From the IMG/VR virus record IMGVR_UViG_3300020576_002312, positions 1 through 64,000 of that record: a stretch of 64,000 nucleotides of DNA, one strand, 5' to 3'. Below, one piece after another: positions 24,719 to 57,269 of the stretch (the stretch's first letter is position 1; every line of letters starts with the position of its first letter). This DNA comes from a virus. Taxonomy: Duplodnaviria; Caudoviricetes. A program made the translations under genes and the position numbers. Under the pieces are notes generated by a model. It ran no database searches. It was not told where the DNA came from and saw only the letters and a program-made list of their open reading frames with translations.

Positions 24719-25813
24719 ATGACAATACAAGAGATAGAACCGTATATAATTTATAAAGTAATTGCGGGTAGTAAGGCGTATGGATTAGACTTACCCACAT
24801 CCGATACCGATATTAGAGGAATCTTTATGCTCCCTAATGAATATCTTTTAGGGAATATCAAGTGCGAACAAGTTAACGATACCACAAATGATATTGTATA
24901 TTATGAACTTAATCGGTTTATTCATTTATTAAAAGAGAATAACCCTAATATTATAGAAAATCTATTTGTTCCATCAGATAAAATTCTATTTAATAGCCAT
25001 AAGATGGACATTCTTTATAATGCAAAAGAAAAGTTTCTAACTACTAAATGTCGCAATACATTTGGGGGTTATTCAATATCACAGATTAAAAAGGCGAGAG
25101 GACTTAATAAAAAGATTGTAAATCCGGTAGATAAAGAGAAGAAAAGTCCAATAGATTTCTGTTATATCTTTGAGAAAGAAGATGGTTATACCATGCTCGC
25201 AAAACAATGGTTAAAAAAACACGGGAAAAAACAAGAGTTTATTGGATTATCTGAATTACCAAACGGAGAACAGATATATAAGGTCTATTATGACTTTCTC
25301 GCTGAAACTAAAAACGATAATCCCCGCTATGGGAATATCGAAACACATGGATTTAGGGGTATCGTTGCCGATGACGGACATCAGTTAAGACACAGTGAGA
25401 TACCTAAAGGGCACATGCTTGAGGGTTTTTTATATTACAATCTTAATGGATATTCTCAGTACTGTAAAGAGTATAAGGAGTATTGGGATTGGGTTGGTAA
25501 AAGAAATCCCATAAGATATAATGATAATGCCAAACACGGGAAAGGGTATGATGGAAAGAATCTTATGCACTGCTTACGTATGCTTGATATAGCTATTGAA
25601 GTTGCACAAGGGAAAGGGGTTAATTTAGTTAGACCTAATAGAGAGTGGCTTTTAAGTGTAAGGCGTGGCGAAGCATCTTATGAAGAGATAATGGGATTAA
25701 TTGAATCAAAGAGGGAGATAATGGATAGTGCTTTTGCCGAATCCACGCTCCCATCCCATGTAGATGAAAAATTTGTTTTTAAACTTCTAAATGACATGCG
25801 AAAAAATAATTAA
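24719..25813 (+). CDS. Pol-beta superfamily nucleotidyltransferase (RlaP/T4 NrdC.11-like), moron
   Basis: AGSKAYGL..PTSDTDIRGIF; NPNIIE; GYDGKNLMHCLRML; own promoter (24698-24705) and terminator. Confidence 0.88.
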   Translation: MTIQEIEPYIIYKVIAGSKAYGLDLPTSDTDIRGIFMLPNEYLLGNIKCEQVNDTTNDIVYYELNRFIHLLKENNPNIIENLFVPSDKILFNSHKMDILYNAKEKFLTTKCRNTFGGYSISQIKKARGLNKKIVNPVDKEKKSPIDFCYIFEKEDGYTMLAKQWLKKHGKKQEFIGLSELPNGEQIYKVYYDFLAETKNDNPRYGNIETHGFRGIVADDGHQLRHSEIPKGHMLEGFLYYNLNGYSQYCKEYKEYWDWVGKRNPIRYNDNAKHGKGYDGKNLMHCLRMLDIAIEVAQGKGVNLVRPNREWLLSVRRGEASYEEIMGLIESKREIMDSAFAESTLPSHVDEKFVFKLLNDMRKNN

Positions 25814-30449: not shown

Positions 30450-31892
30450 ATGTCACTTTCCAATCAGGCAATTACAAACAACACCTTTCAGGGATCTCAC
30501 GATTCCGCATGGGCGAGTCTTTATAGTCTCGTCAATCTTCCACAGGTATATCCTAATCTCGTACAGCGTTACGGTGCAGGATTTTCCAGAGAATTTTTCG
30601 AGTTCCTTACCATCGCAGGACAGGTAGGTACTTGTAAAGCACAGACAGAAACAACTTTTGAGAAGGGTTCTCCTGAAAAGGCAATTACTCTTTCCGCAGC
30701 TATCACAGTTGTTGGCGCAGGCGCAACAATCGCTGTATCAATCAACGAGTGGAACGGTGCAGGTCAGTCTTACCTTTCAATAGGACAGAAGATACTTATC
30801 CCACCTGCCTATATCACAAAGAGTGGTGTAAAACCCGTAGTAGGTCACTGGTATCAGGTAACTTCAATGGGCGCAGTTCAAGCACCGGAAGCTAACACTG
30901 TATTCACATGTACCCCTCTTGATGCACTGACAGTTCTCGCAGTACAAGTTCCATCGGGAACAAGTCTGATGGTAACAGGAGGTAACTTTGCTCCTGGTTC
31001 ACTTGGCGCAAAACCTAAAACAAGCGGATGGTACTCACGTACATTCACAACTGCTATCAAACGTGCTGCTTTCGCTATCGAGGGTTCACAGCAGTCCACA
31101 GAGAGATACACCGACCACCTTATAGGAGGAAGTCAGGGTGTATTCAGTGAGGCTTCAATTCAGGGTGAGTTCGATCTCGATCAGTCAATAAATTACGAAA
31201 TCCTTCTTGGTGGAGTAGCAAACAACCTGACCATGACTAACGAGGATAGTGTTGCTAACTCAGTACGTGGTACACTCGGATTCCTTCCACAGCTTGAATC
31301 AAGAGCTTGCAGACAGTATTACACATCTGCTTATAGCGTTCCTGATGTTGATGATATCAAAAAAGCATGGATTTCACAGGGTGTTACCGAAACCAATGGT
31401 ACACTGATTGCGGGGAATGATTTCCTTCAGGGATTAGAGAACAACGCTCTTGACTTCATTAAAGAGTTCTCAGGTGGAACAGACCTTATGACAGCAATGA
31501 ACGAGATGAAAGTTGACTTCAAAGTGCTGAAAAAAGGACTCATCACACTGACACTTCACGAGATGAAATCTTTCACCAACCCTAACACCCTTGGTAACTA
31601 CGACTTCGGCAAGTACGCAGTTGTATTCCCAAGCACACAGGTAACAGTGAGAGAAGGTGCAGGTGCAACCGAGATTAAGATTCCAAACGTAAGGCTCGCC
31701 TATAAGAACTATAATGGTGAAGACAGAACACGTTGCTTCGGGACTATCAACGGTATCAATGGATTTTCAGGTGGAAATCAGAACATTGCTGACGCAAGGG
31801 ACAGAAAAAAAGTTGAGATATTAAGTGAGTTCATGCTTCAGGTTCATGCAGCCAACCAAATGCTCCTTATAATGCCGTCAACGGTTTTATAA
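30450..31892 (+). CDS. major capsid protein (crAss-like HK97 fold)
   Basis: 480 aa; position portal-scaffold-MCP; highly expressed codon style; terminator follows. Confidence 0.85.
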   Translation: MSLSNQAITNNTFQGSHDSAWASLYSLVNLPQVYPNLVQRYGAGFSREFFEFLTIAGQVGTCKAQTETTFEKGSPEKAITLSAAITVVGAGATIAVSINEWNGAGQSYLSIGQKILIPPAYITKSGVKPVVGHWYQVTSMGAVQAPEANTVFTCTPLDALTVLAVQVPSGTSLMVTGGNFAPGSLGAKPKTSGWYSRTFTTAIKRAAFAIEGSQQSTERYTDHLIGGSQGVFSEASIQGEFDLDQSINYEILLGGVANNLTMTNEDSVANSVRGTLGFLPQLESRACRQYYTSAYSVPDVDDIKKAWISQGVTETNGTLIAGNDFLQGLENNALDFIKEFSGGTDLMTAMNEMKVDFKVLKKGLITLTLHEMKSFTNPNTLGNYDFGKYAVVFPSTQVTVREGAGATEIKIPNVRLAYKNYNGEDRTRCFGTINGINGFSGGNQNIADARDRKKVEILSEFMLQVHAANQMLLIMPSTVL

Positions 31893-31946: not shown

Positions 31947-32044
31947 TATCTTTGTAGTGGAGATAGTCGAGGGTAATTGCTCGATGATAAGGGGCAGCCA
32001 ACAACCCTTCTCCACTTTTGTTGGCATCACTAAATTGTTGGATA
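31947..32044 (+). promoter_or_regulatory. promoter and pseudoknot-capable leader of HNH gene
   Basis: TATCTTTG; stems GTGGAGA/TCTCCAC, TCGAG/CTCGA, AAGGG/CCCTT; loop GCCAACAA complementary to TTGTTGG twice downstream. Confidence 0.55.
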
Positions 32045-32857
32045 ATGAATAAGATATGTACTGTATGTGGGCAAGAGAAAGAGATTGATCTCTTTGTAAA
32101 GAAGGCTAAAAGTCCAGACGGACACGCATCTGAATGTAAAGATTGCCATAATAAGCACAATAAGGATGTTTATTATAGAGATATAGAAAAAAGTAGAGAA
32201 AAAGGACGGACAACATCTGCTTCTTATAAAAAAAGGCATCCAGATAGGGTTAAGGAAAATGCTAAGAAGGAACATGTAAAAAATAAAGACAAATATGATA
32301 GCCGTATTATTATATATAGGAGTACACATAAGGATGAAATAAATACATCCAAGCGAGAGTACGCTAAAAAACATCCTGAAAAGGTAAAAAAATGGCACGA
32401 TAATGCAGTTAAGAAAAATGGGGATAAATATAAGGATACTAATAAAAGATATAAAAAAGAAAATAAAGAACGTCTTAATAAACTTGAGGTTGAAAGACGT
32501 AACAAGAATCCACAATTAAAGATTGCGCATAGTCTTAGAAATAGCATAGGTAAATCGTTAAAATCCAAGAGTGAACTTGGAAGAACTCCATCTCTTATAG
32601 GATGCTCTATTGATTCTTTTTGTAAATATCTTGAATCTTTGTTTACAGATGGGATGACATGGAAAAACTATGGACAGGGAAATGATAAATGGACGATTGA
32701 CCATACAATTCCCCTTGTGACGTTTGACCTTGAAAACGAAGAACAACAAAAGATAGCGTTTCATTGGAGCAATATGAAACCTATGTGGCAAAGAGAAAAT
32801 TTTTCTAAAGGGAGTTTGCATAATGGGGTTAGACATCACCGAAAGAAGGCATCTTAA
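32045..32857 (+). CDS. HNH endonuclease (paralog of 20820-21605)
   Basis: ICTVCGQEK...ECKDC; LIGCS; MTWKNYG..WTIDHTIPL..FHWSNMKPMW..N. Confidence 0.88.
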   Translation: MNKICTVCGQEKEIDLFVKKAKSPDGHASECKDCHNKHNKDVYYRDIEKSREKGRTTSASYKKRHPDRVKENAKKEHVKNKDKYDSRIIIYRSTHKDEINTSKREYAKKHPEKVKKWHDNAVKKNGDKYKDTNKRYKKENKERLNKLEVERRNKNPQLKIAHSLRNSIGKSLKSKSELGRTPSLIGCSIDSFCKYLESLFTDGMTWKNYGQGNDKWTIDHTIPLVTFDLENEEQQKIAFHWSNMKPMWQRENFSKGSLHNGVRHHRKKAS

Positions 32858-35454: not shown

Positions 35455-36168
35455 ATGGCGCAGACTAGTGGATTTCGTGAGATTGGGTTGGTGGTCGATA
35501 ACTTCTTGGCAAAGAATAAACTCACCAACGATGACTACTTTACGTACCTCATCCATGCCTGTGATGCGTACAGAGAGATAAGTTTAAGACATAGCAATGC
35601 CATAGTAACGGCAAAGGTTAGTATATCATCTTTAGGGATAATAGATATGCCAGCTGATATGGTAGGGTTCTCTAACTTATTTATTCCTATAAATGGTGAG
35701 TTTTGGAGTTTTACAGACTTACCGAGGAAAGTAAATACTACAACAACGACTAATAATGTAGAGGGACAGGATGCGACACAGGGCGAGGGCGTTGATGTAA
35801 AGAAAGAGTTCTTCTATGGCATTGGTGGTGTAGGTGGGGTGAACGACTACGGGCGTAAGATAGACTGGAAAGCACGAAGGATATTCTGTGACGGGATTAA
35901 GTCTGATACCGCAGTATTGGTTTACACAAGCAATGGGTTAGAGGTTGGAGCGAGTACATATATCCCCTCTCAGTGTGAGATTTGTATTGACAGGTATCTT
36001 ATGTGGAAACAATCAGAGTTCGATAACGAGTCAATGAATAAGGTCGTCTATAACGAGGAAAAGTGGAAGGAAGAAGTGTTAAAACTCAGAGTGTTTAATT
36101 TCCTTCCAAACCGTGATGAACTTGAAGATGCTTGGAATAAGTCAGTAACTCAAAGTTATCAAAGGTAG
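35455..36168 (+). CDS. tail ring (tubular) protein
   Basis: AKVSISSLGIIDMPADMV pattern; position before muzzle. Confidence 0.6.
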   Translation: MAQTSGFREIGLVVDNFLAKNKLTNDDYFTYLIHACDAYREISLRHSNAIVTAKVSISSLGIIDMPADMVGFSNLFIPINGEFWSFTDLPRKVNTTTTTNNVEGQDATQGEGVDVKKEFFYGIGGVGGVNDYGRKIDWKARRIFCDGIKSDTAVLVYTSNGLEVGASTYIPSQCEICIDRYLMWKQSEFDNESMNKVVYNEEKWKEEVLKLRVFNFLPNRDELEDAWNKSVTQSYQR

Positions 36169-36171
36169 GAA

Positions 36172-39100
36172 ATGAGTGATATAAAACAGGATATTACCTT
36201 TATCGGGTCGGGACTCGATTCTGATACGTCAAATAAGCTAATGGCATTGGGCGATAGCCCTGTTAGGTTACACGTAGCTGTGACCGATGATAGTCTTCAG
36301 GGAGAACTTGTAACCATGCTTGGTACAAAACTTGTATCATACCAAGGTGGTCTTGCGTTATCGAGGGCTTACTTCGCACATGGGGGTTACTACAACGAGT
36401 TACAGAGGACGGTGTATTATTTCATCTTCAGCCAGCCATTTTTAGATACAAGCGTTCCTTCCCCGACTGAATATATCTACGACAACAGGGTACTTGCATA
36501 CAGGGAAGATACAGGGGTAATTGATACGATATTCATTGATAGAAAAAACTATCTTGAGTTAGATCCCGAAAAACCACTCATACGGCCATGTATGATTAAG
36601 GATTGGCTGTTTATCAATCCGGTGACGAGTCAACCAAAAATGATTGATGTTACAAGGGCTTATAACTATACTAACTTTCCGGCATGGGATTCCACAAAAG
36701 GAGATTATGTTTACGGTGATAGAGTAACTTTCTTTGGCGGTCTATTTGTAGTTATTGCCACGCCAACAGCAGGGCAGTCGCCATCAACGCACCCTACTAA
36801 ATGGAGAAGAATAGGGGATAGTTATCAGAGTGAGTCGAGTACTATTGGCGATGAGCTTTCCGTGGCTTTTAACATGATTAAAACTCCCCCGATAGACGTT
36901 ATTAAAACTGCCTTCGGGAGCGACCCAAGCGTAAGTTCAAATCAGGTTAAGGGTAGGGTATTTAGGTTTTGTCACAGGTATCAGTATTTTGATGATTCAT
37001 ATTCGGTTTACTCTGCTTATACGGGACTTAGTTTACCCGTGGACGATGAATTATATTCGGGAGAGGTTATATACTCGACTACATTCAATAACTATATAGC
37101 ACTCACCTTTAGTCTTTACTCGGCATCCCTTGTAAAGAACATAGAGTTATTCTTTCAGGAGTTAGATGGTTCATGGTATAGGTTAGCAGTCATAAAAAGA
37201 CAAGATCAGACCTTGCTTAATGATGTAAACTATACACATAATTTCTACAATAACGAGTCGTATATTGCAGTTCCAAATAGTGAGGTAGTTAAAGTTCAGG
37301 ATGCAGTACCAAGGGAAGCAGGGTCACTTGAGATAATCAATGAGAATATTCTTACACTAGGGAAATGCACAGAGGGATTTGATAACCTTGAAAAAGATGT
37401 TATTGATGTTACTCTTACCCCTGAGATAAAAGATATAAAGCAGTTCACACAAGAAGATACCTTTAAAAGAAACAATATTCCTGGTGATTTAAGTTATAGT
37501 AACTCTTATGATGAACAACTTGGAGTAAATTTTTACTATACCATACTTGACGTAGGAACATGGTTTGCAGGGAGTGGTATAATAGCAACAGATGTTTATA
37601 AGGCTACTCTTGATGGGTTAACCCAATATAAAACACTCGGAGCAGGAGATGTTGATACGGCTGAACATTTAGCTAATGCAATAGCATCGTTATTTCAGAA
37701 CGCAACGGTATATAATGGTGGTGGGGGGATAGTTAATGTACAAATACTTGACTATTATAAGTTTCCTGAACTAACGCTATCGAGATTCTATTCTCCCGAT
37801 GCGCTTGTTACAGGCACGACAACACTTACTAAGTTCAAGGGGGTAAAAGAGGGTGCGTATCATCCATATTGTCTATTCTATTATGACGGACAAATGAGGC
37901 GTAGTTCAGCGCAGGTAAATAGCGATATGGTTACTTACGTGCCATCCGTAAATGAGTACTCACCTCCCGTTACCACAACTAACCATAAGTGGGATATTAA
38001 TTGGGCAGTCAATCACGAGCCTCCAACATGGGCTAAATATTGGAAATGGGGTTATGCAGGGAATAGAAGATGTTCTTATTTCGTTCAGTATATTATTAGT
38101 AAGGTAGAATTATCTGTCGTAGCACCCGATACGCCCGATGTAAATAATACGGTTAAGGTTAATATCACTCCATTACAGACGCTACGCACAACATCAGAGG
38201 TTGGGTGGAACTGTTTCCCAAATTCTATTATTCCTCAATATCAATTTACCGAGGGTGATAGGATAAGGTTTATAACAGAACTTACAGACCCAACACTCGC
38301 AGGCACTCTCTTAGGGGATGTTCTTAATGGTATATACGATTTTGAGATACTAAAATTCGATGAGACCACGAATATGCTCTATGTTCAGTCTTTTGACTTT
38401 GGGACGGCAAACATAGGGGTAAATAGCCTCGTAGAGATTTATACTCCAAGGAAAACGACAGAAGTAGAGTTCTATTATGAGTTCAGTGACCTTTTACCTA
38501 TCGTGACTGATATTAATGGCAAAAGTGCTCATGGGGCAGTTAATTCAGCCAATAATCAGGTAGTAGGTGTATCTCCCGCAACAGGTGTATTTGAGAGTGG
38601 GGATATTTATCATATCTATCGTACGCCAAGTAAGCCATTATCCGAGGATATAAGTGAAACCTTTATGGGGGCTTTCCACGAGTCAATGTGGTGGAGTGAT
38701 TTTTACAAGAGTGACGATTGGAATAGAGGCAAGATAGGTATTGAGAATCCCATAGGCGAGGTAACGACAAACCTCGTGAGGTATTCAAATCCTTATTTTC
38801 AAGGGACACAGATAAACGGACTCACAACTTTTGAAGAAGAAAGTAAGAAAGAGATAAACGATGTATTTGGTGACATACAGGCACTCGTAGAGGTAGGTGA
38901 TACATTAAAAGTATATCAGACTAAGAAAGCAAGTGCAATACTCATAGGTAAGACAGAGTACACAGATTCATCGGGACAACAGACAACGCCCGAACTTACT
39001 ACAAGGACATTGGGATCTATTCGTTACCCTGAAAGTAACTATGGTACGATATTCCCTGAGTCTATTGTAAAAAATAACAGGTACGTTTACGGCTTTGACG

Positions 39101-41007
39101 TTCATAATGGCGTGGTGTGGAGAGATTCCCCTTCAGGGATATTCCCAATAAGCGGTAGATATGCAGAGGCAGGGGGTGATGTAGATTACAAGATGCAGAC
39201 CTATTTCAAGAATAAGTCAAAGGCATTAATGGAGTCGGGCGTTGACCATATCAAGTGTATAGGTGTTTGGGACGGGGAGAATAAGATGTACGTTCTGTCT
39301 ATCAAAGATACCGTCAATGAGGAGAATAATGATACTATCATGTTCCACGAGCCAAGTAACAGGTGGATTACATACGCTGACTTCACTAAGACACCGACAG
39401 GGGGATATAACCAACTACTTGAACTTACATGGGAAGTTGTTAAGGGTTTTGAGAATGGCATAGGTCTTTCGTTTGATTATACAACAAGATTTGCGGTGTT
39501 TGATATAGGTAGCGGGCTTGGTACGTCAGCCAACGCATCGGTAGTACCGCCAAGTGACGGGTTGGGATTAAGAACCTATATTCCGCTTCCGACAATCACT
39601 TGCACAGCAGGGGTAACACCCGATGAGATACCTATGGTGATGACGATACCTGACCCTGTAATACATATATCATCCTTATCGGTAAGCGAAGATACAATGC
39701 TTTGGGATGCAGATCAGAGTGGTGTGGGTGATAAGATAACTACGATGCTATCTAGTATCAATAATCCTTATATAGCAGCTACCTTTATCCTTGAAAGTAA
39801 GCCTTCGTGGATTACGATACTTGAAGAAGGCAGAGCTATCTTTATCAATAACGGAGATACCGTATCACTTACCACTAATCTTTGGGTTTATCCGACACTT
39901 GACAATACGGGAGCACAGAGAGCAGGACAGATTATCTTTAAGGATAGTTTCGGTAACAGAGCAGTAGTCTATTGCACACAGCAAATAGCACTTGTTAATC
40001 CGATAGTTATTCTCGCAATTAATCCCGCAGACACATCAGACCTTGGTATTGGCATGGGAAGTAGTGGTAGTAATTCGGTGGGTACAACAAGAGTGAACCT
40101 AACTGACTTAAATCTCTACAATCCTGGTCGGGCAAATGGAGCAACCTTTGAAGTATTCTACGCAATAACAAGGGATGGGGTTAATGATGCTTCGGGTTCA
40201 TTCGATTATAGAAATGGTGTTATAACAACTACATTCGTTTTACTTAACTCAATATCAACTTCGGGTGAGCAAATTATAGTGTATTTTAGCAGTGCATCAC
40301 ACTCAATACCTATTGATCCTGTAAATGCGAGTGTTCTCGCTGACCCGATAAATATGGTTATCACTATTCCAAAACCGACAATCGTTGTGTCGTGGATTAG
40401 CTTTACCAATACCACGATGACATGGCCTGCAAGTAATAATTCTTACGCAAGCAAGCAGAGTGCGGTAGCCACGTTCCATTCAACCGTGAGTGCGTTCTTA
40501 CAATCATTTCCTTCGTGGATTACTATAATAAATGAATCACACGGGGGTACAATGTTTGTAGGTGACTTAGTAAGAGATGGCGATACTTTGAGTATATACC
40601 CAAATACTACCAATGCTCTCTATGTTCCCAAGGTGGGTACTATCAACTTCAATGACTCGGTGGGTAATATAACTCATATCAACGTCACTCACCAAGCTAC
40701 ATTACTACCGCCAAGCGTTACCATACAGATGCACCCAAGCGATAGGTCAGGTACTACACTCTCACTTATCTCAGGAACGGGCAGTGCAGGCAGTAGTAAT
40801 ATTAGTATTACCTTTACACCGAACTACCCGCATGTAGCTTACGGCAGACCGATAGATTTCAATTATGAGATATGGAAAGACGGAGTGCCTGTTGGTAGTG
40901 GTAGTATGTTTAGTCTGTTAAATCAGAGGGCAAATACAAGAGCATTGACGATGACAAGTCCCGCAGAGGCAGGGCAAACGATAATAATATATTTACAAGA
41001 ACCTTAA
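36172..41007 (+). CDS. tail muzzle/stabilisation protein N-terminal part fused to Ig/BACON-like repeat extension
   Basis: FCHRYQYFDDSYS; LTLGKCTEGF; HPYCLFYYD; FGDIQAL; YGFDVHNG; TIMFHEPSNRW, then repeats. Confidence 0.8.
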   Translation: MSDIKQDITFIGSGLDSDTSNKLMALGDSPVRLHVAVTDDSLQGELVTMLGTKLVSYQGGLALSRAYFAHGGYYNELQRTVYYFIFSQPFLDTSVPSPTEYIYDNRVLAYREDTGVIDTIFIDRKNYLELDPEKPLIRPCMIKDWLFINPVTSQPKMIDVTRAYNYTNFPAWDSTKGDYVYGDRVTFFGGLFVVIATPTAGQSPSTHPTKWRRIGDSYQSESSTIGDELSVAFNMIKTPPIDVIKTAFGSDPSVSSNQVKGRVFRFCHRYQYFDDSYSVYSAYTGLSLPVDDELYSGEVIYSTTFNNYIALTFSLYSASLVKNIELFFQELDGSWYRLAVIKRQDQTLLNDVNYTHNFYNNESYIAVPNSEVVKVQDAVPREAGSLEIINENILTLGKCTEGFDNLEKDVIDVTLTPEIKDIKQFTQEDTFKRNNIPGDLSYSNSYDEQLGVNFYYTILDVGTWFAGSGIIATDVYKATLDGLTQYKTLGAGDVDTAEHLANAIASLFQNATVYNGGGGIVNVQILDYYKFPELTLSRFYSPDALVTGTTTLTKFKGVKEGAYHPYCLFYYDGQMRRSSAQVNSDMVTYVPSVNEYSPPVTTTNHKWDINWAVNHEPPTWAKYWKWGYAGNRRCSYFVQYIISKVELSVVAPDTPDVNNTVKVNITPLQTLRTTSEVGWNCFPNSIIPQYQFTEGDRIRFITELTDPTLAGTLLGDVLNGIYDFEILKFDETTNMLYVQSFDFGTANIGVNSLVEIYTPRKTTEVEFYYEFSDLLPIVTDINGKSAHGAVNSANNQVVGVSPATGVFESGDIYHIYRTPSKPLSEDISETFMGAFHESMWWSDFYKSDDWNRGKIGIENPIGEVTTNLVRYSNPYFQGTQINGLTTFEEESKKEINDVFGDIQALVEVGDTLKVYQTKKASAILIGKTEYTDSSGQQTTPELTTRTLGSIRYPESNYGTIFPESIVKNNRYVYGFDVHNGVVWRDSPSGIFPISGRYAEAGGDVDYKMQTYFKNKSKALMESGVDHIKCIGVWDGENKMYVLSIKDTVNEENNDTIMFHEPSNRWITYADFTKTPTGGYNQLLELTWEVVKGFENGIGLSFDYTTRFAVFDIGSGLGTSANASVVPPSDGLGLRTYIPLPTITCTAGVTPDEIPMVMTIPDPVIHISSLSVSEDTMLWDADQSGVGDKITTMLSSINNPYIAATFILESKPSWITILEEGRAIFINNGDTVSLTTNLWVYPTLDNTGAQRAGQIIFKDSFGNRAVVYCTQQIALVNPIVILAINPADTSDLGIGMGSSGSNSVGTTRVNLTDLNLYNPGRANGATFEVFYAITRDGVNDASGSFDYRNGVITTTFVLLNSISTSGEQIIVYFSSASHSIPIDPVNASVLADPINMVITIPKPTIVVSWISFTNTTMTWPASNNSYASKQSAVATFHSTVSAFLQSFPSWITIINESHGGTMFVGDLVRDGDTLSIYPNTTNALYVPKVGTINFNDSVGNITHINVTHQATLLPPSVTIQMHPSDRSGTTLSLISGTGSAGSSNISITFTPNYPHVAYGRPIDFNYEIWKDGVPVGSGSMFSLLNQRANTRALTMTSPAEAGQTIIIYLQEP

Positions 41008-41022
41008 TAAATTTAAAATACA

Positions 41023-41439
41023 ATGGCAAGTTCAATTCCAAGGGCAAGAAGAAAAGAGTATGCAGATACGCTTGTGGCGAAAGCACTCAAGGTAGCGTTC
41101 TTTACTAACCTTACGGGGTATGATCCTTTAACAGCAACTACTTACGCAGCGTTAGCGGGGACAGCAAGTGAGGTTTCCAACGCAGGGACAGGCTACACTA
41201 CGGGAGGATATTCTCTTACAGGAAAATCATCATCTAATCTTGCTACTAATGGGGCAATAATGACAGCCGATGCAACAGTACTTGGTTCAGCAACCTTTAC
41301 TGCTCAGTATGGTGTTATCTACGACTCTGCAACGGGAAAGATTGAGGGTGTATCTGATTGGTTAACTCCTTATAGCGTAACCAACGGAACGATCACAATA
41401 ACTTGGGATACAGTAGCGGGTTTGTTTAACGTACAGTAG
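41023..41439 (+). CDS. small fibre-associated structural protein
   Basis: LKVAFFT...EVSNAGTGYTTGG...YGVIYD...NGTITITW pattern. Confidence 0.65.
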   Translation: MASSIPRARRKEYADTLVAKALKVAFFTNLTGYDPLTATTYAALAGTASEVSNAGTGYTTGGYSLTGKSSSNLATNGAIMTADATVLGSATFTAQYGVIYDSATGKIEGVSDWLTPYSVTNGTITITWDTVAGLFNVQ

Positions 41440-41448
41440 TAAAGGGTT

Positions 41449-42960
41449 ATGGATAAGCCGAATGTCCTTAAAAGTTCACCGTTTTACATGTCACAAGGCG
41501 ATGTATTATACCTACTTTTCGTAGATGAAAACGGGGATACACCTACCTTTACTTTGAACTCAGAGAACGATGAACTTAGTCCACCTACTGCACCCGTAGC
41601 TACCGATGCAACGTCTGTTACGTCAAGTAGTTTTGTTGCCAACTGGAACTTCACAGAGAACGCAACAGAGTATTTCCTTGATGTAGCAACCGATAGTGCG
41701 TTCACGAGTTTAGTTGCGGGGTATGATAATAAATCAGTGGGTAATGTGACTTCGGCAAGCGTGGTGGGGCTAACAGATGCTTATACATATTATTATAGGA
41801 CAAGAGGTGGTAACTATAACGGAATAGGAAATAACTCAAATACGATAGACTTAACCACAGCGATAGAGAACGTAGTTGATGCAGATGGTAATGTTTATAC
41901 TTATGTAACCATAGGCACTCAGCAATGGATGGTAGAGAACTTAAAGACCACTAAGTATGCTGATGGAACTCCAATACCAAATGTTGCAACTTCATTTAGT
42001 GATTGGTTCTTACCATCTAAGGATGAATTAAATGCCATGTATCAAGAATTAGAGGTGCATGGAGTGGGAGGATTTAGTGATGATATGGGAAGTTATTCTA
42101 CATCAATATATTTAACATCATCAGAAGCGGCTGCTATTCCGGCAGGGCTTGTATGCGTGCAATCTTTTGCTGATGGTGTTCAATATGAAAATATATTTAA
42201 AAATGAGGATCATAATGTAAGACCATGTAGGGCATTTACATCTATATCGCCATCATATTCATTGAGAGACATAGGCCCAGCGGGGGGATATATCTTTTGG
42301 AAATCGGGCAACAATTATCTTGAAGCTATGGCTTATGATATCGGTAGTTACGATTGGAGTAATATTACAGGTCTACAGGTAGGCACGGCTACAGCAATAG
42401 GAACAGGTCAGGCTAATACCACTGCTATTATAGGTCAAGTAGGGCACACCGTTAGTGCTGCCAAATATTGTGATGATTTCATTTTAACAAGCGATTTATT
42501 TTGGGTTAATGATACTAATGGCGCATACTGTTGGTACAACAACGACATAGCAAACAAGACACCTTACGGAGCACTCTATAATTGGTACGCAGTAGATAAC
42601 GCACATGGACTTGCACCTACGGGGTGGAGAGTGCCAAGCGATGCTGATTTTACTACGTTGATAACTTATATAGGTGGAGACGCAGTTGCGGGTGGAAAAT
42701 TAAAAGAGCAGGGAATTACTCATTGGATAACACCAAATACGGGCGCAACTGATGATTATGGGTTTGCGCATCGTGGCGGGGGGCGAAGATATTTAGGATT
42801 ATTTGATACTCTAATGCAGACAGGCTATTTAAGAAGTTCTTCTATTTGGGCAACATCGTCTGTTTTTTTTACAGGACATACTATTACTAATATGAATATT
42901 GGGTATTATGACAAAACAGATGGCTATTCAATTAGGTGTATGCGTGACGTGACTCCTTAA
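41449..42960 (+). CDS. adhesin: FN3 domain + Fibrobacter succinogenes major-paralog lectin domain with inserted Lcl/DUF1566-like domain
   Basis: FN3 SFVANW..YFLDVA..YYYR; DADGNVY..IGTQQWMVENL; GALYNWYAV; GWRVPS; YSIRCMRD. Confidence 0.8.
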   Translation: MDKPNVLKSSPFYMSQGDVLYLLFVDENGDTPTFTLNSENDELSPPTAPVATDATSVTSSSFVANWNFTENATEYFLDVATDSAFTSLVAGYDNKSVGNVTSASVVGLTDAYTYYYRTRGGNYNGIGNNSNTIDLTTAIENVVDADGNVYTYVTIGTQQWMVENLKTTKYADGTPIPNVATSFSDWFLPSKDELNAMYQELEVHGVGGFSDDMGSYSTSIYLTSSEAAAIPAGLVCVQSFADGVQYENIFKNEDHNVRPCRAFTSISPSYSLRDIGPAGGYIFWKSGNNYLEAMAYDIGSYDWSNITGLQVGTATAIGTGQANTTAIIGQVGHTVSAAKYCDDFILTSDLFWVNDTNGAYCWYNNDIANKTPYGALYNWYAVDNAHGLAPTGWRVPSDADFTTLITYIGGDAVAGGKLKEQGITHWITPNTGATDDYGFAHRGGGRRYLGLFDTLMQTGYLRSSSIWATSSVFFTGHTITNMNIGYYDKTDGYSIRCMRDVTP

Positions 42961-42972
42961 CAGATAAAAGCT

Positions 42973-43569
42973 ATGGCAGAAAGAATAGTAGAAATAATGA
43001 GTGATAGTGACGGACGAAAGCACCTTGAGCTTGGTCTTGATGCTGAATCCTTGTCATCGTTCCGTTTACAGATGTGGATTCATAAAAACGGGAAACGTGC
43101 AGTGGATTGGATGAATAACCTGTCGCTTAGTTATATTTCCTTTATCAATGGAGATTTATACGTACACAACTCACATGAAGTGCCGAGATTGTTCTTATTC
43201 GGAGAGCAGAAAGAAGCTAAGATAGGTCTTGTAGCAAACCAAGAACCACAGGAGATAAAACTACTTGACTCACTTATGCTCGACACAGATGGGGCATGGG
43301 AGGTTGAATCGGTAGTCATTCCCCCGTCAATGAACTATCCTGACGGACACTATTCACAGATACCCGCAAGTATGTTTGTCAAAAGAGAGGGCATTTACGA
43401 GTCGGAGTTCCTTAGAAATATGAAGACAAGCAGTTCAACTATCAATCCTATTGAGGCGTTGACAGGAGAACCACTTCGAGGTAATGAAGCGTTGATAACA
43501 CTACGTACGACAAGCGGGGATAGGGTTAGGCTCTTTCGTTGTCAGATAAACATGACCAAAAGTAGATAA
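42973..43569 (+). CDS. tail muzzle C-terminal part (separate ORF)
   Basis: WMNNL..SFINGDLYVHN..FGEQ..NQEP..K..W..KREG..LRG matches my recollection of muzzle C-termini. Confidence 0.65.
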   Translation: MAERIVEIMSDSDGRKHLELGLDAESLSSFRLQMWIHKNGKRAVDWMNNLSLSYISFINGDLYVHNSHEVPRLFLFGEQKEAKIGLVANQEPQEIKLLDSLMLDTDGAWEVESVVIPPSMNYPDGHYSQIPASMFVKREGIYESEFLRNMKTSSSTINPIEALTGEPLRGNEALITLRTTSGDRVRLFRCQINMTKSR

Positions 43570-43608: not shown

Positions 43609-44316
43609 ATGAGTTTTACACCTTGGGGTATAGCAGCGAACACGGCACTTGGATTAACCAAGGGGGTGCTAGGTATTTTTCAGGCAGCCAAAGCAAGCAA
43701 AGGTTTACGTAACTTACAACAGCCACAATATCAGACACCCGAATCACTTACACAGATGGGAAACTTGGCAAGGCAGATGGCAAGTGCTACGGAAATGCCA
43801 GGTCAAAGACAGGTTGAAGATAAGTTAGGACAGACACAGGCAGAGGGCGTGAGTAATGCGATGAAGTTTGCTACGAGTGCTCTTGCAGGACAGAACGCAG
43901 CAGAGAACCTTGCATCGAAGAAGATGCAGGCAATACAAGACTTGGGTGGTATGTTCGCAGAGTATAAGTCTAAAAGACAACAGGATTTGATGAACGTGAT
44001 GGGACAAGAGGCTCAAGACCAACAGACCAAGTGGAACTTAAACGAATATCAGCCATATCAGATTAAAAAGAATGAGTTGACCGACCAAAGACAGCAGGGA
44101 TGGAATAATATGTTTGGAGGTGTTGATAGTGCGTTGTCGGGGATTACCAACTTAGCGGGCACAAATGACTATTTAAAAGTACTTAAGGGGATGCAACCGC
44201 AGTTTGGTAACACGGGGAATGCTCAAGCTAATACTTCTTTAGGGAATAATAATCAGTGGGCTAATTGGGCAAATCCAAATTTTCAGATGCCACAATATAA
44301 TTATAAACCGTACTAA
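43609..44316 (+). CDS. cargo/ejection (pilot-like) protein
   Basis: Gly/Ala-rich hydrophobic N-terminus, Q/M-rich coiled coil; promoter TACCTTTG at 43583. Confidence 0.65.
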   Translation: MSFTPWGIAANTALGLTKGVLGIFQAAKASKGLRNLQQPQYQTPESLTQMGNLARQMASATEMPGQRQVEDKLGQTQAEGVSNAMKFATSALAGQNAAENLASKKMQAIQDLGGMFAEYKSKRQQDLMNVMGQEAQDQQTKWNLNEYQPYQIKKNELTDQRQQGWNNMFGGVDSALSGITNLAGTNDYLKVLKGMQPQFGNTGNAQANTSLGNNNQWANWANPNFQMPQYNYKPY

Positions 44317-46570: not shown

Positions 46571-49500
46571 ATGGAAGATAAGACAAAATTACTTTACGAT
46601 AAACTATCCGAGCAGGGGTTATATACTAAATCCTTTGACGAGTTCACTACTCAGTTCAGCGACCCAAGTAAGAGAGAACTACTGCATAGTGCGTTAGGGA
46701 AGCAGGGATTGTACACCAAGACCTTTGATGAGTTCAACGCACAGTTCTTCCCTGTTGAAAAAAAAAAAGACACTTCGGAAAGCGATGGACTTCCTTCTTC
46801 GGATATTCCATCAAAGATAGGGCAAGAAGTATCAAAGAAGCCACTCGAAGATTTTACAACTCAACCATCACAGTCAACATCGACTGAACAGCCGTCTGTC
46901 TTAGGGGAATTAGGTCTTACTCTTGAGACACCAAAGCCTACCGGATTCCATGAAGAAAATATCGGGACAAGAGGATTGCAATATCTTTCAGGGCAAACAC
47001 CTGATGTTATCGGCAATGAATTAACAAGAAAACAAAAGCAGTTAGAGAACATTCCGAGTACTGAATTAAAAAACTCAGACGGAACTATTAAACTTGCAAC
47101 ACCCAAATCACTTGTAGAAGATTACTTTAATTTCAAGTCCATTCCACGAGATAATTCCCAGGCAAATACCGCAGGTGAGGCTGTTATGTCCGTACCAAAA
47201 GAGTTAAGCAATGCCTTTGGACGTATGTTTGATGATATGGCAACCGCAGGACGAGCAGTAGAGAAGGGATTTGCACAGATATTCTTAGGCAAAAAAGGTT
47301 CGGATGCCTACATGAAAGCCAAAGATGCGGGTACATTTTCTGCACCTAACTCTATGTCTGCACGACCCGCAGAGAGTTTATCTACTTTCTTATCGGAATC
47401 AACTAAGAATCTCAAGTACATGCCCGAAGGACTTGGGGGCAGTGTTGCAAAAGGGATGATTGATATTGTTCCTGATATCGCAGCCACGTTGATATTTCCC
47501 GAAGGTAAAGTATTCTCTATCGCACCAAAGATAGGGCTTAACCTTGGTAAGTTCGGGATGGAACAAGCCATACGAGGCTATGCACAAGGTATAGGTGAGA
47601 GTAATGGTCAGTTTGGTTTGCAGTTAAAGATGCCCGTTGTTAGAGCGATAGAAAAGGGTGCAATGGGATGGATGTACGAAACAGCAGGAGGATTAAATCA
47701 GAAATTTGCGGGTAACATAGCAAATAGACTATTCCCTAACGCTAGCACCGTTTCAGAATCTATAAATAAGTCTTTATTAGAGCACGGGACGGTATCTACC
47801 CTTGATGGACTTACATTTGGGGGGCTTGGTTCGCTTGATGAGTTATTACGCACGGGAAAGATTACAAGCAAAACATTCCTTGAAGGCTTTGGTATGGGCG
47901 TGGGATTCCATGCTGTAAATGGCTTTCAGTTACTTGGAGCGAGAGCATACACTACTCTTTTAGGGATGCCATCAGAAGGTATCACAAGACTTGCTACAAG
48001 TGGTACAAGTGCTGAAGAACTAAATAAGCAGGCAGACGAAAAGATAAACCTTATTGAGACAAAACAGTCACAGAACCCCGAAGGTGATGCGGTGATGGCG
48101 TTCATGCTTAAAAAGACTGCACAGGCGAAAGCAATGGCAGAGGAAGTCCTTACTAATAAAGATGAGGTCATTGCCGATATAAAAGCTAACGTAACTGATA
48201 AGAAGGCACAAGAAGTCCTTACTGATAAAATCAACGAGGTAGATGCCGACAATGACCCAAAGGTACAGGCAACAAAAGAAATCAACGACAAGATTGCAAA
48301 GATAGACGAACAACTTGAAACAATCAAGTCAAATAAATCATGGGATGATGCGAGGAAAGAGGTAGAGTCTGCACCATTGAAAGAGCAGAAGCAGGCGTTG
48401 AAAGACGAGGCTATCGCCACTCTTAACAAACCCATCGAAACCGAGTTTAAACTTGGGGATAAATCTTTCAAGACAGAGAAGGAACTCACCGACTGGCTTG
48501 ATAAAAACTACAACGAAGAAGATAGATTCACATCGGTTAACGAGGATGGTTATCTTGAACCCAATACCATGAAGGTATTCAATAAATGGTATAAAGAAAA
48601 TAAGCCAAGACTCGCACAGGAACACCTTGATAAGATTGAGCAGTCAAGACCTCCGAAAGACGTTACTTTTATAGGGAAACAAGAAGGGGAAACACCCGAA
48701 GAAAGCCTTGACCTTTATAATGTAAAAGTAGGCGGCCAAGAAGCTACCTTTGCAGTACCAAGTGGCAGTGGAAGGGATGTTATCGAAGCGAAGAAACAAG
48801 CGACCATTGATAAGTTCAAACCCGCAGAGAGCAAAGAATCTATTCCTTTAGTAGAAGAAAAGACTGATGGCTCTACGGGGGATAAGGTATCTTATTTAAC
48901 AGATGAACAAGCAACTCGTATAGGTGAAAAATTAGGACTTACCAAAGAACAAGTATTAGCGGATTCTCCGTCTAATATAGATTTCGTTTATGATCCCAAA
49001 AATAAAGTGTACCCTATTGTAAAAGCAATAATAGATGAAATAGGGAAAAAACCAAAGTCATCCTTAGAGGAGAGTAAACCAATCCTTGAAGAGAATAATA
49101 ACTCTAGCGGGGATAGCAAACCATCACTTACTGATAATAAAGTAGAAGAAGTACTTTCCAAGGGTGACGAGATAAAAGCCAAGCAAGAAGTGGTCAAGGG
49201 GAAGATAGCCGACAACCTCGACAATCTAATGAGTGCTATCGGGGGAATCAAGAATATCACGGGCGATCAAAGAGTGAAGGTGCTTAGTGAATTAGCAGAC
49301 CTCGCAAAGAATATAGCTGAATTAACTTCTCTTAAAGGAGAACAACTTTGGAATGAAGTAAAGAAATATCTTGACGAGAGAAAGATTACCCTGCCTGACG
49401 ATTTGATTTCTGAGTCAAAAACAAGCATTATTGATACATACAAAGAAAAAACTACTGAGAAGGGTAGTGAAGTATCAGCCGAGGAGAAAATAAGCGAAAA

Positions 49501-52500
49501 GTCGTCAGGGGATAAGAAAAACGCTAATAATCCCGATGTTCGTCAAATGGAGGTTGCTCGTAAAGCCGTTGATGAATCAATGTTGCTTTCTGATGACACG
49601 AAACAAGACCTCCGAGATCAAGGGATAGAGTATGCGGTACAGAAAGACTCAGCACTTGATTCTGAGGTTGAGGAGATGGTTAAGATATATGGCAAGGACG
49701 TTGCGGGACTTGACCAAATGCAAGCACTGATAACCAAAGAAGACAATAAGTTAAGCGGGGATAGACGTAACTGGCTTACTGCATTGCTTATCAAGGAACG
49801 TGCAAAACAGATTGAGATAGCACCCGACTTTGCAAGTAAAGTAGCGGAGAAGAAAAAACTTACTGACCTTATCATATTCGCATCAAACAAGGGTGTGTTC
49901 TCAGGACGGGAAACAAGGTCATTCAAAAAGATAGGTGAGGCACTTGAACTTTATCCCGAAGCAATAAAAGCATCGGTCATCGCTAAGATAGACCAAAAGA
50001 ACAAAGAGTTTTTTGACGGCAATGGTCTTGAGAAGATGATTAAAGAGGAAGTAGCTAATTTCTTTAAGGATAAACCACAGAGTAAACCACAAGAGGATAT
50101 TCCTGATATAGATGTTTCAAAAGCTAAGTTAGCAAGAGTACAGGCAGATAGAAAAGAGATACTTGCAAAACTTAAAGAGAGTTTTAAGAAACCAAGTGGT
50201 ACATTATCGTCAAGCGTAATCCCCCTAAGTGCAGAACAGGTAGAGTTAGTTGTTAAACTTGTAGGGAACTATATTGAGGAAGGTGCTTTAAGAACCGAAA
50301 AGGTAGTAAGAAAATTACGCAAGGATTGGGAAGAAATCACAGGCGAAAAGATTACAGATGAGGATGCGTTAAAACTACTCCCTAAAGAGGTGAATGGAAG
50401 GACTATCGAGCAGTGGGATGCCGAGGGTAGAAAACCAAGAGTAGAAAAACAGGGTAAGCCCCCACGTAAACTGAGTACTAAGTCTAAACCGACACCCACA
50501 GAAGAAGAACTTACCAATAGGCTTTTAAAGAAAGCGGGGAAGATAGCAACAAAGAAACAACTTGAAAACTTTGTAAAGAAATACCTTACTGAGATAGCCA
50601 ACAAAGGATTACTTACTGACCAAGAGTTCAGGAGTGTACTAGCAGAGGCACTTGGAAAAGATTATGTTTCAGGACAATCAGAAGGTAAGATAGACGAGGC
50701 AGCGAAGGCAGTTAGCAAATCAAATGAGAAACTTGGTTTACTGCAAAAAGCGTTTGACGATTGGAAGACCGAATATAATAACGACCCCAAATCACCTAAA
50801 TTAGCAGACTTACGTAAGGCACTTGACAGTGCTATTAAGGATGCCGATAATGCAATGTCTGATGCCAAAAGAAAGTATCAGTTTGTTCAGAGTATGTTAC
50901 AGGAAGAACCCGACTTTGTATCTAAATTAGGAACAATGATACAGGGGGGATTGCTTATCCCGTCATCACAGGTCGCAAATATTCTTGGTAACGTGGCATT
51001 GTTACCTGAGACTGGCCCTGCTTACATGCTATCAGGTGCATTTGATGCACTGACAGCTAAAACGGGCGAGGGTATGCAACAATTAATTTCTAAAGTAGAT
51101 CCCGTTAAACATCCTTGGTTATACAGAAAACTTAACGCATGGACACCGAGCGATAAGAGAACCATTCTTCCAGGAGAATATGCCAAAGGATATGCAAGGG
51201 GATTTGGTCATAACTTTCTTGAGGGGGTAAAACAAACATTCTCAGTAGAAGGGCCAGTAGGCACAGAGTTAATGAAAGGCAGTGTTCAAAGAGGCGTACA
51301 TCCGATTGATGCTTTTATGCACCTTTATAAAACAGCAACAAAGGAAGAACAGCGAACACTACAACAACTTGCAGGTGATTTAATGGAAGCATTGCCCGCA
51401 GGATATATGGCTAATGCCCAGTTTAGGGGATTGAATATGTTTGACCTTCCATTCAGGGGTGCGGGTGAATCGGGTATTCTCTATGAAGCATTTGGAATAA
51501 AACGCAGAGAACAGATTAAACAAGCCAATCAAATAACGGATAAAGCCGAGAGAGAAAAGAAACTTAAATATTTAGAGGACACAGAGGATGTCGCAAGAGA
51601 AGAGTTCTATCGCAATCCCGACAAAACAACGCTTGAACTTGCAAAGAGACAGGGTGCAAAGGGTACGTTCTCTCAGAATACAGCATTAAGTAATGCAATA
51701 AATAGTTTTGAGAGGTTTGCTAAAGATCAAAGCGGTTCGGTAGCAGAGACGGCAGTAAATACCGGATTAAGGATGCTTAAAATGCTTAACATGCCTTATG
51801 TGACCGTTCCTATAAATATCATGGGTAAGTCCCTTGAAATGTCTATACCGATCTTTCCTGCGTATAAAATGATAAACCATATTGCTAAAGCGGGGATGGC
51901 AAAAGAGAAAGGGCATTATGCCGTTGCTGACTCATATAGGCGTATGGCAATGGAAGATTTCGGTAATGCGATAGTAGCGGGTGCGGTAACAACACTTGCC
52001 ACTTCACTTGCAATGGCAGGGGTAATAAGAGGTAATAGTGATGATAAGGACGTTAAGGCAGCGCAACAGGATATAGGCAAGGAAGGATTAAGGTTTAATG
52101 CCGATGCTTTCCGTAGGTGGAGAAATGGGGAAGACCCAACATGGCAGGATGGCGATGATACTTATTCTTTAAGGAGACTTGGTGTATTCTCAGTTCAACT
52201 TGGGGCTATTGCACAGGCGATAGGGGAAAAGACACCCGAAGAACTTGAGAAGATGAAGAACCTTGGATTGATAGAGAAACAAGCGCAGATTGGGGCTAAT
52301 ATGTTGAAATACGCACCAACGATAGCACTTGAGCAGTCTATTATGACAGGGGTTAATAATATGGTTCAGGGATTAATGGGTAGTGAGGCTGAGAAAGATA
52401 AGTGGGTAGTAGGCATGGCAGGTGCATTATCAAGTGCAGTCTATCCGAATACAATGGGGAATATCAGTCAGTCCCTTGATGGTTATTATCGTGAGACGAG

Positions 52501-57013: not shown

Positions 57014-57269
57014 CATCACCACATGGATAATTCTCTTATGTACTTATCTTATATTCGATTCGCTATATGTACTCTATATACAGGCTGTAAACGAATATAA
57101 AGCACTAAAGGCATCCTTTCTCGGAGTATTTATGTATCTGCTCACCGCTTATGGCACTATCGAATATATTTCTAACTTTGTGAACATCATTCCTATCATA
57201 TTAGGAAGTGGACTTGGAACTTTTATTACTATAAAATATCTTTCGGTTAAAAATGAGGAAAAAATGTAA
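56997..57269 (+). CDS. three-TM membrane protein
   Basis: Three hydrophobic helices; C-terminus duplicated after HNH. Confidence 0.7.
   Translation: MVEKISITTWIILLCTYLIFDSLYVLYIQAVNEYKALKASFLGVFMYLLTAYGTIEYISNFVNIIPIILGSGLGTFITIKYLSVKNEEKM

Follow-up and report, generated by a model that had tools for sequence, protein, structure and literature searches.

The stretch of DNA analysed here (the window, 64,000 nucleotides) corresponds to positions 1 to 64,000 of the IMG/VR record IMGVR_UViG_3300020576_002312, a virus of the Caudoviricetes whose record is 78,186 bp long with a completeness estimate of 88%. The window carries a crAss-like structural module, and the genes for the muzzle, the tail nozzle of crAss-like phages, sit within it, which is the genomic place of a crAss-type muzzle. 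In this phage, the muzzle is encoded by two separate open reading frames (ORFs), P0001 and P0004, and two other ORFs, P0002 and P0003, lie between the two muzzle parts. The four ORFs are all on the plus strand and are tightly packed in the order P0001-P0002-P0003-P0004, with intergenic gaps of 9–15 nt. The two-gene state of the muzzle is conserved across a clade, and the adhesin cassette at its fibre-dock position is variable. The locus contains the following features (aa, amino acids).

36172–41007, plus strand: P0001, 1611 aa; muzzle N part followed by the post-break segment and the arm
36172–39384, plus strand: muzzle N part, P0001 residues 1–1071; predicted platform strand(s), most of the propeller, and inserted Ig-like and crass-type domains
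39385–39546, plus strand: post-break segment ('Next'), P0001 residues 1072–1125, ~50 aa; specific to split forms
39580–41007, plus strand: variable arm at the end of P0001; two repeats of ~237 aa with beta-rich Ig-like domains
41023–41439, plus strand: P0002, 138 aa; predicted tail-appendage or fibre-attachment fold; present in all split relatives examined
41449–42960, plus strand: P0003, 503 aa; putative receptor-binding protein with an N-terminal segment of ~30 aa, an FN3-like region and a lectin-type head
42973–43569, plus strand: P0004, 198 aa; muzzle C part in residues 45–198
42973–43104, plus strand: N-terminal extension of P0004, residues 1–44; conserved in stand-alone C parts
43105–43236, plus strand: predicted last propeller strands, P0004 residues 45–88
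43258–43569, plus strand: predicted C-terminal beta-sandwich, P0004 residues 96–198 plus stop; platform-C or ring-joining domain, with a below-cut-off match to PF25729 at residues 76–146

A preliminary description of this DNA had proposed that the large ORF is muzzle-like up to about position 39385, that the ORF at 42973–43569 resumes the muzzle, and that the two motifs at the interruption are normally contiguous, and all three points were borne out. In P0001, the motif ...IMFHEPSNRWITYADF ends at residue 1071 (window position 39384), and P0004 reads ...VDWMNNLSLSYISFINGDLYVHN... starting at residue 44. Residues 1–1071 of P0001 align with residues 1–1035 of the fused protein P0104 (1217 aa) at 43% identity (E 0), and residues 46–198 of P0004 align with residues 1046–1216 of the same protein (E 1e-28), that is, with a muzzle C-terminus. 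Another fused protein, P0100, gave the same result (E 6e-36 for the P0004 alignment). Since both parts align to P0104, the two motifs are separated by ~10 residues in a contiguous relative, and the consensus of 50–60 fused proteins (F.E..NRW.....F.P..Y...G....SF..G.LY.HNS) matches the pattern given in the preliminary description. In the window, the distance from the last codon of the N part is 3588 bp to the start of P0004 and 3.72 kb to its first homologous residue. This gap is occupied by the remaining 540 aa of P0001, the 138-aa ORF and the 503-aa FN3/lectin ORF.

Both parts belong to large groups of homologues. Residues 1–1100 of P0001 matched 115 homologues, a few of which carry crAss_MUZ_C (PF25729) at the C-terminus, and P0001 also matched phrog_14478, a virion structural protein (E 8e-31). 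A phmmer search with P0004 against 1.84 billion representatives yielded 579 homologues; the closest are stand-alone proteins of about 180–300 aa, and most of the others are the extreme C-termini of proteins of 1100–1830 aa. According to the precomputed table, PF25729 is carried by the fused proteins P0100, P0104, P0107–P0109 and P0111–P0113. Judged from these alignments, the relation of P0001 and P0004 to the two muzzle halves is far beyond chance. PDB sequence searches with P0001, P0004, P0002 and a 50-sequence profile of fused muzzles returned nothing relevant, even at E 10. The muzzle homology is seen by sequence in the fused relatives; crAss001 itself is reached only through comparison of folds. 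In addition, a muzzle of the crAss001 gp44 type has one polypeptide per subunit, whereas the muzzle here is divided between two ORFs 3.6 kb apart, and its C part occurs once in the genome.

Position of the break in the muzzle fold

Because sequence profiles do not reach the PDB, we modelled the fused relative P0152 (1190 aa, 60-sequence alignment; mean predicted local distance difference test score (pLDDT) 86.4, predicted template modelling score (pTM) 0.77). The best match of the model was the crAss001 muzzle 7qol_P (Foldseek E 1e-33; VIA Z 32.7, root-mean-square deviation (rmsd) 5.4), with 850 residues aligned between model residues 1–1190 and chain residues 4–1371. The ring-joining domain, the seven-bladed propeller and the inserted domains that define the crAss001 muzzle fold (7QOK/7QOL) are all found in the fused P0152 model. 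The podophage nozzles of Pa223, SU10, P22 (gp10), VP1, GP4, Sf6 (gp8) and T7 (gp12) matched P0152 with Z 18–25, and both termini of the model were aligned in these comparisons as well as in that with crAss001 gp44. Plain WD40 propellers aligned over ~280 residues, from model residue ~30 to 1060–1083.

The two parts of the window muzzle were then placed on P0152 by sequence. A gapless BLASTP alignment relates P0004 residues 45–192 to P0152 residues 1039–1186 at 33% identity, and the end of the N part maps to residue 1035. After the junction, the model contains strands at 1040–44, 1047–52, 1055–61 and 1076–82, followed by a C-terminal beta-sandwich at 1090–1189. The alignments at 1035 and 1039 thus put the break between the strand at 1028–1033 and a four-strand propeller unit, which may be a last blade or velcro strands. 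On this homology model, the break lies inside the propeller, before the last four strands and the C-terminal sandwich, with no free domain linker at this place. By homology, P0004 would contribute the final propeller strands together with the sandwich (platform or ring-joining domain), and everything else would come from P0001.

The C part is well conserved as a gene of its own. Matches of P0004 in tblastn searches of related IMG/VR genomes (numbered L001 onwards) begin at residue 1–6, and the C parts are intact, with 196–201 aa and 44–53% identity, in L001, L003, L005 and L008; that of L007 is ended by the contig end. Across six C-part sequences, 44 columns are invariant, and the C part is always the last gene of the cassette. 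These features bear on the idea that P0004 is a decaying remnant of an insertion and that the muzzle works without its original C-terminus. The small size of P0004 and a crAss_MUZ_C score below the Pfam cut-off are what this idea would lead one to expect. However, the reading frames in the sister phages are open and similar in length and sequence, as just described, and P0004 corresponds to the ring-joining domain, without which the muzzle could not be seated on the tail barrel (PMC10172136) and of which the genome has no other copy. We therefore regard decay as very improbable.

The N-terminal extension of P0004 provides a hint as to how the split arose. An hhalign comparison of stand-alone C parts with fused junctions (probability 100%, E 6e-65) extends back to residue 19, and residues ~19–44 of P0004 stand opposite the T..F.E..NRW hairpin, which is also kept by P0001. 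MAFFT gives the same register, and the end of the alignment is weak. The presence of a copy of the hairpin in both genes suggests a partial duplication during fission, and it is probable from these alignments that the junction hairpin has been duplicated, with one copy in each gene.

Distribution and origin of the split

To describe the distribution of the two forms, 266 collected proteins were sorted by their phmmer matches to three queries (N-end, C part and post-break segment), as follows.

N-only: 101 proteins, with tails of 59–746 aa after the break
Fused: 124 proteins, most with 3–20 residues between the two parts
C-only: 38 proteins, some of which are fragments

Nine proteins of 190–250 aa that carry the muzzle C part (P0132, P0133, P0185, P0129, P0131, P0138, P0146, P0192 and P0198) have a clear copy of the F.E..NRW..F hairpin, or the whole preceding blade, before the C part. 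Each is either a piece of a fused gene or the product of an independent split one blade earlier.

In the IMG/VR relatives, both halves are found on one contig, and the two-gene layout is present in seven genomes. The muzzle gene is fused in L006, L010 and L012–L015. The distance from the end of the N part to the start of the C part varies from 1.8 to 10.3 kb.

L004/L005: 1.76 kb
L007: 2.2 kb
L003: 2.3 kb
Window: 3.6 kb
L002/L028: about 3.8 kb, across permuted contig ends
L008: 4.0 kb
L001: 10.3 kb

The contig L002/L028 (IMGVR_UViG_3300044712_000499, 82,580 bp) carries the N part at one end and the C part at the other, which points to a circularly permuted complete genome that was cut inside the cassette.

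The recurrence of this layout also bears on whether the split is only apparent, the halves being rejoined by an intron, an intein or ribosomal bypassing, or separated by an assembly artefact. We found no evidence in support of this. The closely spaced ORFs in the gap are complete and conserved and have their own starts; the layout recurs in seven independent contigs with gaps of different length; and P0004 has its own conserved N-terminal extension. In addition, an Rfam search that included group I and II introns gave no match at E<=1 in the gap, and no flanking repeats were found at the cassette. Such rejoining is hardly credible, still less so than the decay of P0004.

A FastTree tree (149 rows, midpoint-rooted) was calculated from the C-terminal 420 residues of the N part. 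All 51 sampled split rows fall on one side of a branch with a support of 85, and the fused trio P0104/P0100/P0107 is placed next to them as the sister group, the two together having a support of 100. The remaining 81 fused rows, and the 14 rows that have in-frame inserts, are found outside the split clade. This topology indicates that the split arose once and is the norm in the clade of the window phage. On the wider tree the fused state is placed as ancestral, and this direction of the event is likely. Judging from sequence conservation, the two-gene muzzle is clade-wide and under selection. The split is therefore not an event private to this phage. The preliminary description was to be abandoned if relatives had the two-gene arrangement as their ancestral norm; because the layout is clade-wide, this is what was found for the close relatives, although on the wider tree the fused state is ancestral. 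Its proposal of a nozzle propeller made from two chains holds in that the protein is split where others are contiguous and the break lies inside the propeller, but this is not peculiar to one phage.

The junction is also an insertion hotspot in muzzles that have not been split. Seventeen fused proteins carry in-frame inserts of 70–603 aa exactly at the junction, and these inserts need at least five origins on the tree. In the relative L009, for instance, the muzzle (P0127) is a single uninterrupted ORF of 1653 aa with 455 aa inserted at the junction. Examples of these inserts and their sizes are given below.

P0111, P0108, P0147, P0175 and P0202: ~140–157 aa
P0195: 246 aa
P0127: 455 aa
P0160: 478 aa
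P0135: 603 aa

BLAST comparisons of the in-frame inserts of the fused relatives with the cassette proteins revealed no meaningful similarity. Since the inserts are unlike the cassette proteins, an origin of the split through stop codons placed in one such in-frame insert is ruled out.

Cassette proteins and surrounding genes

All five split relatives with readable gene order (L001, L003, L005, L007 and L008) share a common arrangement. First comes the N part, extended by the post-break segment and by a tail that varies, and then follow an orthologue of P0002, a P0003-type protein, optional extra genes, the C part and a Gly-rich protein. The post-break segment is present in 99 of the 101 N-only proteins and in none of the fused proteins, and tblastn detects it at 49–67% identity in L001–L005, L007, L008 and L011. 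Thirteen proteins stop 59–86 aa past the break and thus contain this segment and little else. The arm that follows in P0001 is made up of two halves with 32% identity to each other (E 6e-28). It matches no Pfam family at E<=10, and a BACON-like look, seen by eye only, is not claimed here. In relatives, the tail lengths after the break cluster near 75, 190, 295, 450, 540 and 740 aa, as expected for domains gained or lost, and some of these tails carry FN3, PhoD_N-like or CBM_5_12 domains.

P0002 has orthologues of 132–139 aa at the same position in L001, L003, L005, L007 and L008, and matches phrog_644. Its AlphaFold2 (AF2) model has a pLDDT of 93.3. In an all-against-all structural search, the seven top PDB matches of P0002 were all phage tail or neck appendage proteins, as listed below together with the first unrelated chain.

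Sf14 neck: Z 9.4
Bxb1 tail tip: Z 9.3
KP1 baseplate region: Z 8.9
phi812 baseplate: Z 7.8
HFTV1 tail: Z 7.4
Phage 7-7-1 tail fibre: Z 7.0
GP4 fibre I (8jou_a), rank seventh: Z 6.3, rmsd 3.2, 104 aligned of 136
First unrelated chain: Z 4.8

Among the predicted viral structures of BFVD, P0002 resembled the structural protein of phage 7-7-1 (502 aa; TM 0.72 relative to the query) as well as several proteins annotated as tail or minor tail proteins. The ESM Atlas gives PF23140 (Pfam Gp80) only as a lead (0.89), and none of six P0002 orthologues matches this family at E<=10. On its modelled fold, we read P0002 as a tail-appendage module and not as a member of the GP4 family.

P0003 matches Fib_succ_major (E 4e-30) and, weakly and below the cut-off, Lcl_C. 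Fib_succ_major is found in two stretches within window 41953–42945 (P0003 residues 169–499), and the Lcl_C-like region at residues 169–261 precedes the main one. Six relatives share an N-terminal motif in their P0003-type proteins (M.K.N.FKSS.FYM..GDVLH), and the domains downstream of it differ. FN3 and Fib_succ_major are found in the P0003 orthologues of L001, L005 and L008, and those of L003 and L007 match no known family. The view that the genes in the gap encode adhesin or fibre parts thus agrees with their content, namely FN3, Fib_succ_major and a tail-appendage fold. The statement that a cassette split the gene is too simple as an account of the break, since a copy of the junction hairpin is probably kept in both halves and four conserved, clade-specific elements go with the split.

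The cassettes of two relatives contain additional genes. The largest one (L001:14886-23614, 10.3 kb) encodes, besides the orthologues of P0002 and P0003, a 101-aa and an 85-aa ORF, a right-handed beta-helix protein of 1199 aa (a possible depolymerase or tailspike) and a 765-aa protein with a weak FN3 match. In L008, a 225-aa ORF with a weak GIY-YIG endonuclease match (L008:16620-17297, E 7.6e-4) overlaps the start of the C-part gene; this ORF, directly 5' of the C part, is a selfish element at the break.

One of the C-part homologues, P0120 (251 aa), links the cassette to the muzzle. In this protein, a P0003-type N-terminal segment (MDKPNVFKSS.FYM..GD.L; 48% identity over 42 aa, E 6e-8) is joined directly to the muzzle C part, without an FN3 or lectin head. 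P0120 may be a deletion variant or a Rosetta-stone fusion, and the fusion suggests that, once the tail is assembled, the P0003-type segment lies beside the N-terminal end of the C part.

The muzzle genes and the cassette are flanked by conserved neighbours and lie downstream of the packaging and capsid genes, as follows.

22300–24657: large terminase, phrog_6681, upstream of the muzzle genes
25880–28216: portal, phrog_6547 and P22_portal, upstream of the muzzle genes
30450–31892: capsid-type protein, phrog_13704, upstream of the muzzle genes
35455–36168, plus strand: 237 aa; conserved neighbour that immediately precedes the muzzle gene in split as well as fused relatives
43609–44316, plus strand: conserved downstream neighbour, 235 aa, with a Gly-rich N-terminus, after the muzzle C-terminus in split and fused relatives
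46571–53320: ORF of 2249 aa, downstream of the cassette and the muzzle C part

Small virion proteins, including one with a match to phrog_14543, are also encoded upstream of the muzzle genes. In the ORF maps of L001, L003 and L005–L009, an ORF of 227–238 aa stops just 5' of the muzzle start; its counterpart in the window (35455–36168) has no Pfam or PHROG match. Directly 3' of the C part, a Gly-rich ORF of 208–244 aa is seen in the ORF maps of L001, L003, L005, L006, L008 and L009. A blastn search of the DNA against a phage collection gave no match, and no promoters or terminators exceeding the shuffled expectation were detected. Two ORFs of the endonuclease VII/HNH type (window 32018–32857 and 57253–58179; phrog_1035, E 7e-15 and 3e-20) lie in the structural and downstream modules and are probably homing endonucleases. 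In addition, a gene for an RlaP-type nucleotidyltransferase of the polymerase-beta family (364 aa, window 24719–25813; PF10127, E 3e-19) sits between the terminase and portal genes, which is an unusual place.

Comparison with known nozzles and the proposed role of the joint

P0152 has the overall fold of the crAss001 muzzle gp44: a ring-joining domain and a propeller into which large domains are inserted. The genome place is also alike (terminase, portal, capsid protein, putative ring genes and the 2249-aa ORF). However, gp44 is a single chain without an appendage at the junction, whereas the window has two genes, and the similarity is too low for HMMER. The tail fibres of crAss001 are borne by hub proteins of rings R1 and R2, and not by the one-chain muzzle (Bayfield et al. 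2023, PMC10172136).

A closer parallel to the split itself is the nozzle of the Pseudomonas podophage A1002 (PLoS Biol, Nov 2026, PMC13730344), which we set beside the window phage by its published description. In A1002, gp42 comprises platform-N, propeller-N with the tip, and fibre-dock-N, whereas gp39 starts with the fibre dock or 'rope', of which an Ig-like domain is part, and continues with propeller-C (51 aa) and then platform-C (101 aa). The second protein, gp39, fills the strands lacking in gp42, and its rope binds 11 fibre dimers. The fibre proteins gp40 and gp41, whose numbers fall between those of the halves, bind the chain leaving the break (PMC13730344). Likewise, the nozzle here is split into two chains at the fibre-dock position, an Ig-like appendage leaves the break, and residues 45–198 of P0004 are comparable in order and size to propeller-C plus platform-C. 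Fibre-like and lectin genes lie between the halves. In A1002 the small fibre proteins belong to the GP4 fibre-I kind, and P0002 resembles GP4 fibre I in fold at a moderate Z of 6.3. The two lineages are, however, unrelated. The long rope of A1002 forms the N-terminal portion of the C-part chain, whereas here the arm is the C-terminus of P0001, and the extension of P0004 is not a rope-like dock. The window phage also has folded Ig-like repeats and one small-fibre gene, and A1002 is a single, structurally solved case whereas the present arrangement is that of a clade with a variable cassette. The window muzzle is thus a crAss muzzle that is also a split nozzle, is not unique to one phage, and has been precedented in concept since November 2026; the suggestion that it represents an unprecedented route to new receptor-binding modules has to be given up.

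In T7 gp12 (PMC6702177) and the SU10 nozzle (PMC9509320), the fibre dock is a small in-chain jelly-roll or loop. The insertion hotspot described above, located by homology, is found where the propeller ends and just ahead of the platform, and this is the same topological site. In the window phage, however, the chain is broken and whole genes are placed at this site. Our literature search gave no published account of split muzzles among crAss-like phages.

These comparisons lead us to the explanation that we consider probable, namely that the muzzle consists of two chains and that the break serves as a mount and swap site for host-binding modules. The muzzle would probably be a hexamer as in crAss001, each subunit being a pair of P0001 and P0004 that strand complementation, within both propeller and platform, would join, so that P0004 would complete the fold of P0001. 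The break would lie at the end of the propeller, on its outer face, where T7-type nozzles insert the fibre dock. The arm leaving the break would project outward, and a hexameric muzzle would thus bear six of them on each virion. P0002 and P0003 most likely assemble at or near the joint as lectin-tipped side fibres that would bind host glycans. The cassette has conserved muzzle sequence on either side, through which homologous recombination could exchange the modules, with a presumed role in host range; such exchange would explain why the gaps in sister phages range so widely in length and differ in content.

Several observations weigh against this explanation or the assignments on which it is built. 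P0001 matches no Pfam family, and P0004 scores below the PF25729 (crAss_MUZ_C) gathering threshold (19.7 bits, E 0.0012, cut-off 27). The position of the break is taken from a model of a relative, P0152, to which the C part P0004 is only 33% identical. The tree is a FastTree tree with a midpoint root, and the support for monophyly of the split forms is only 85. An hhalign comparison of the post-break segment with the fused junction and with the C part gave probabilities of <1%, so this segment is not a recognisable copy of the missing strands. P0002 lacks a PF23140 match by sequence, and its structural Z scores of 6.3–9.4 are moderate. In contrast to A1002, the long appendage (540 aa) is on the N part, and the extension of P0004 is 44 aa long. 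Finally, since the crAss001 fibres are mounted on ring hubs, adjacency of genes need not mean docking at the break.

The last point leads to the one alternative that we take seriously, in which the split is real but structurally incidental: a module of fibre genes went into a permissive loop, the halves reassemble, the Ig-like arm alone is attached at the break, and P0002 and P0003 are located elsewhere, for example on ring hubs. The docking of crAss001 fibres on the hub proteins of rings R1 and R2 (PMC10172136) is in line with this, as is the occurrence of the P0002-type fold in neck, baseplate and tail-tip contexts, because of which the fold alone does not point to the muzzle. However, P0002, the N-terminal segment of P0003, the post-break segment and the extension of P0004 are conserved and co-occur in the split relatives examined. 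Furthermore, a P0003-type segment is fused to the muzzle C part in P0120, and the A1002 fibre proteins with gene numbers between those of the nozzle halves bind the chain that emerges at the break (PMC13730344). An incidental split is therefore unlikely in our view, and we prefer the two-chain muzzle with a mount at its break.

A wider proposal, which we consider possible though somewhat doubtful, is that the end of the propeller is a universal mounting and fission hotspot in short-tailed phages: it would bear the in-chain fibre dock in T7-type phages, take up in-frame domain inserts repeatedly in crAss-like muzzles, and have been broken independently in A1002 and in the crAss-like clade. In this clade, four conserved, clade-specific elements would make up a joint not described before, which would keep the two muzzle chains together and mount host-binding heads that can be interchanged. 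These elements may be the post-break segment, the 138-aa protein, the N-terminal segment of P0003 and the duplicated hairpin of P0004. If this is true, host range in these phages would be determined chiefly at the joint.

To our knowledge, the receptor-binding proteins of crAss-like phages are poorly defined, and the locus of host specificity is unassigned for most uncultured members. The conserved flanks and variable content of the cassette would provide a marker with which host-recognition modules can be found and compared in metagenomes. In addition, a natural two-piece tail-tip protein reveals a site that tolerates chain breaks and added domains of up to 600 aa, which may be of use for display or retargeting in laboratory phage–host pairs. 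As a second independent example of a split nozzle, the muzzle of this clade suggests that such splitting reflects a general principle rather than an oddity.

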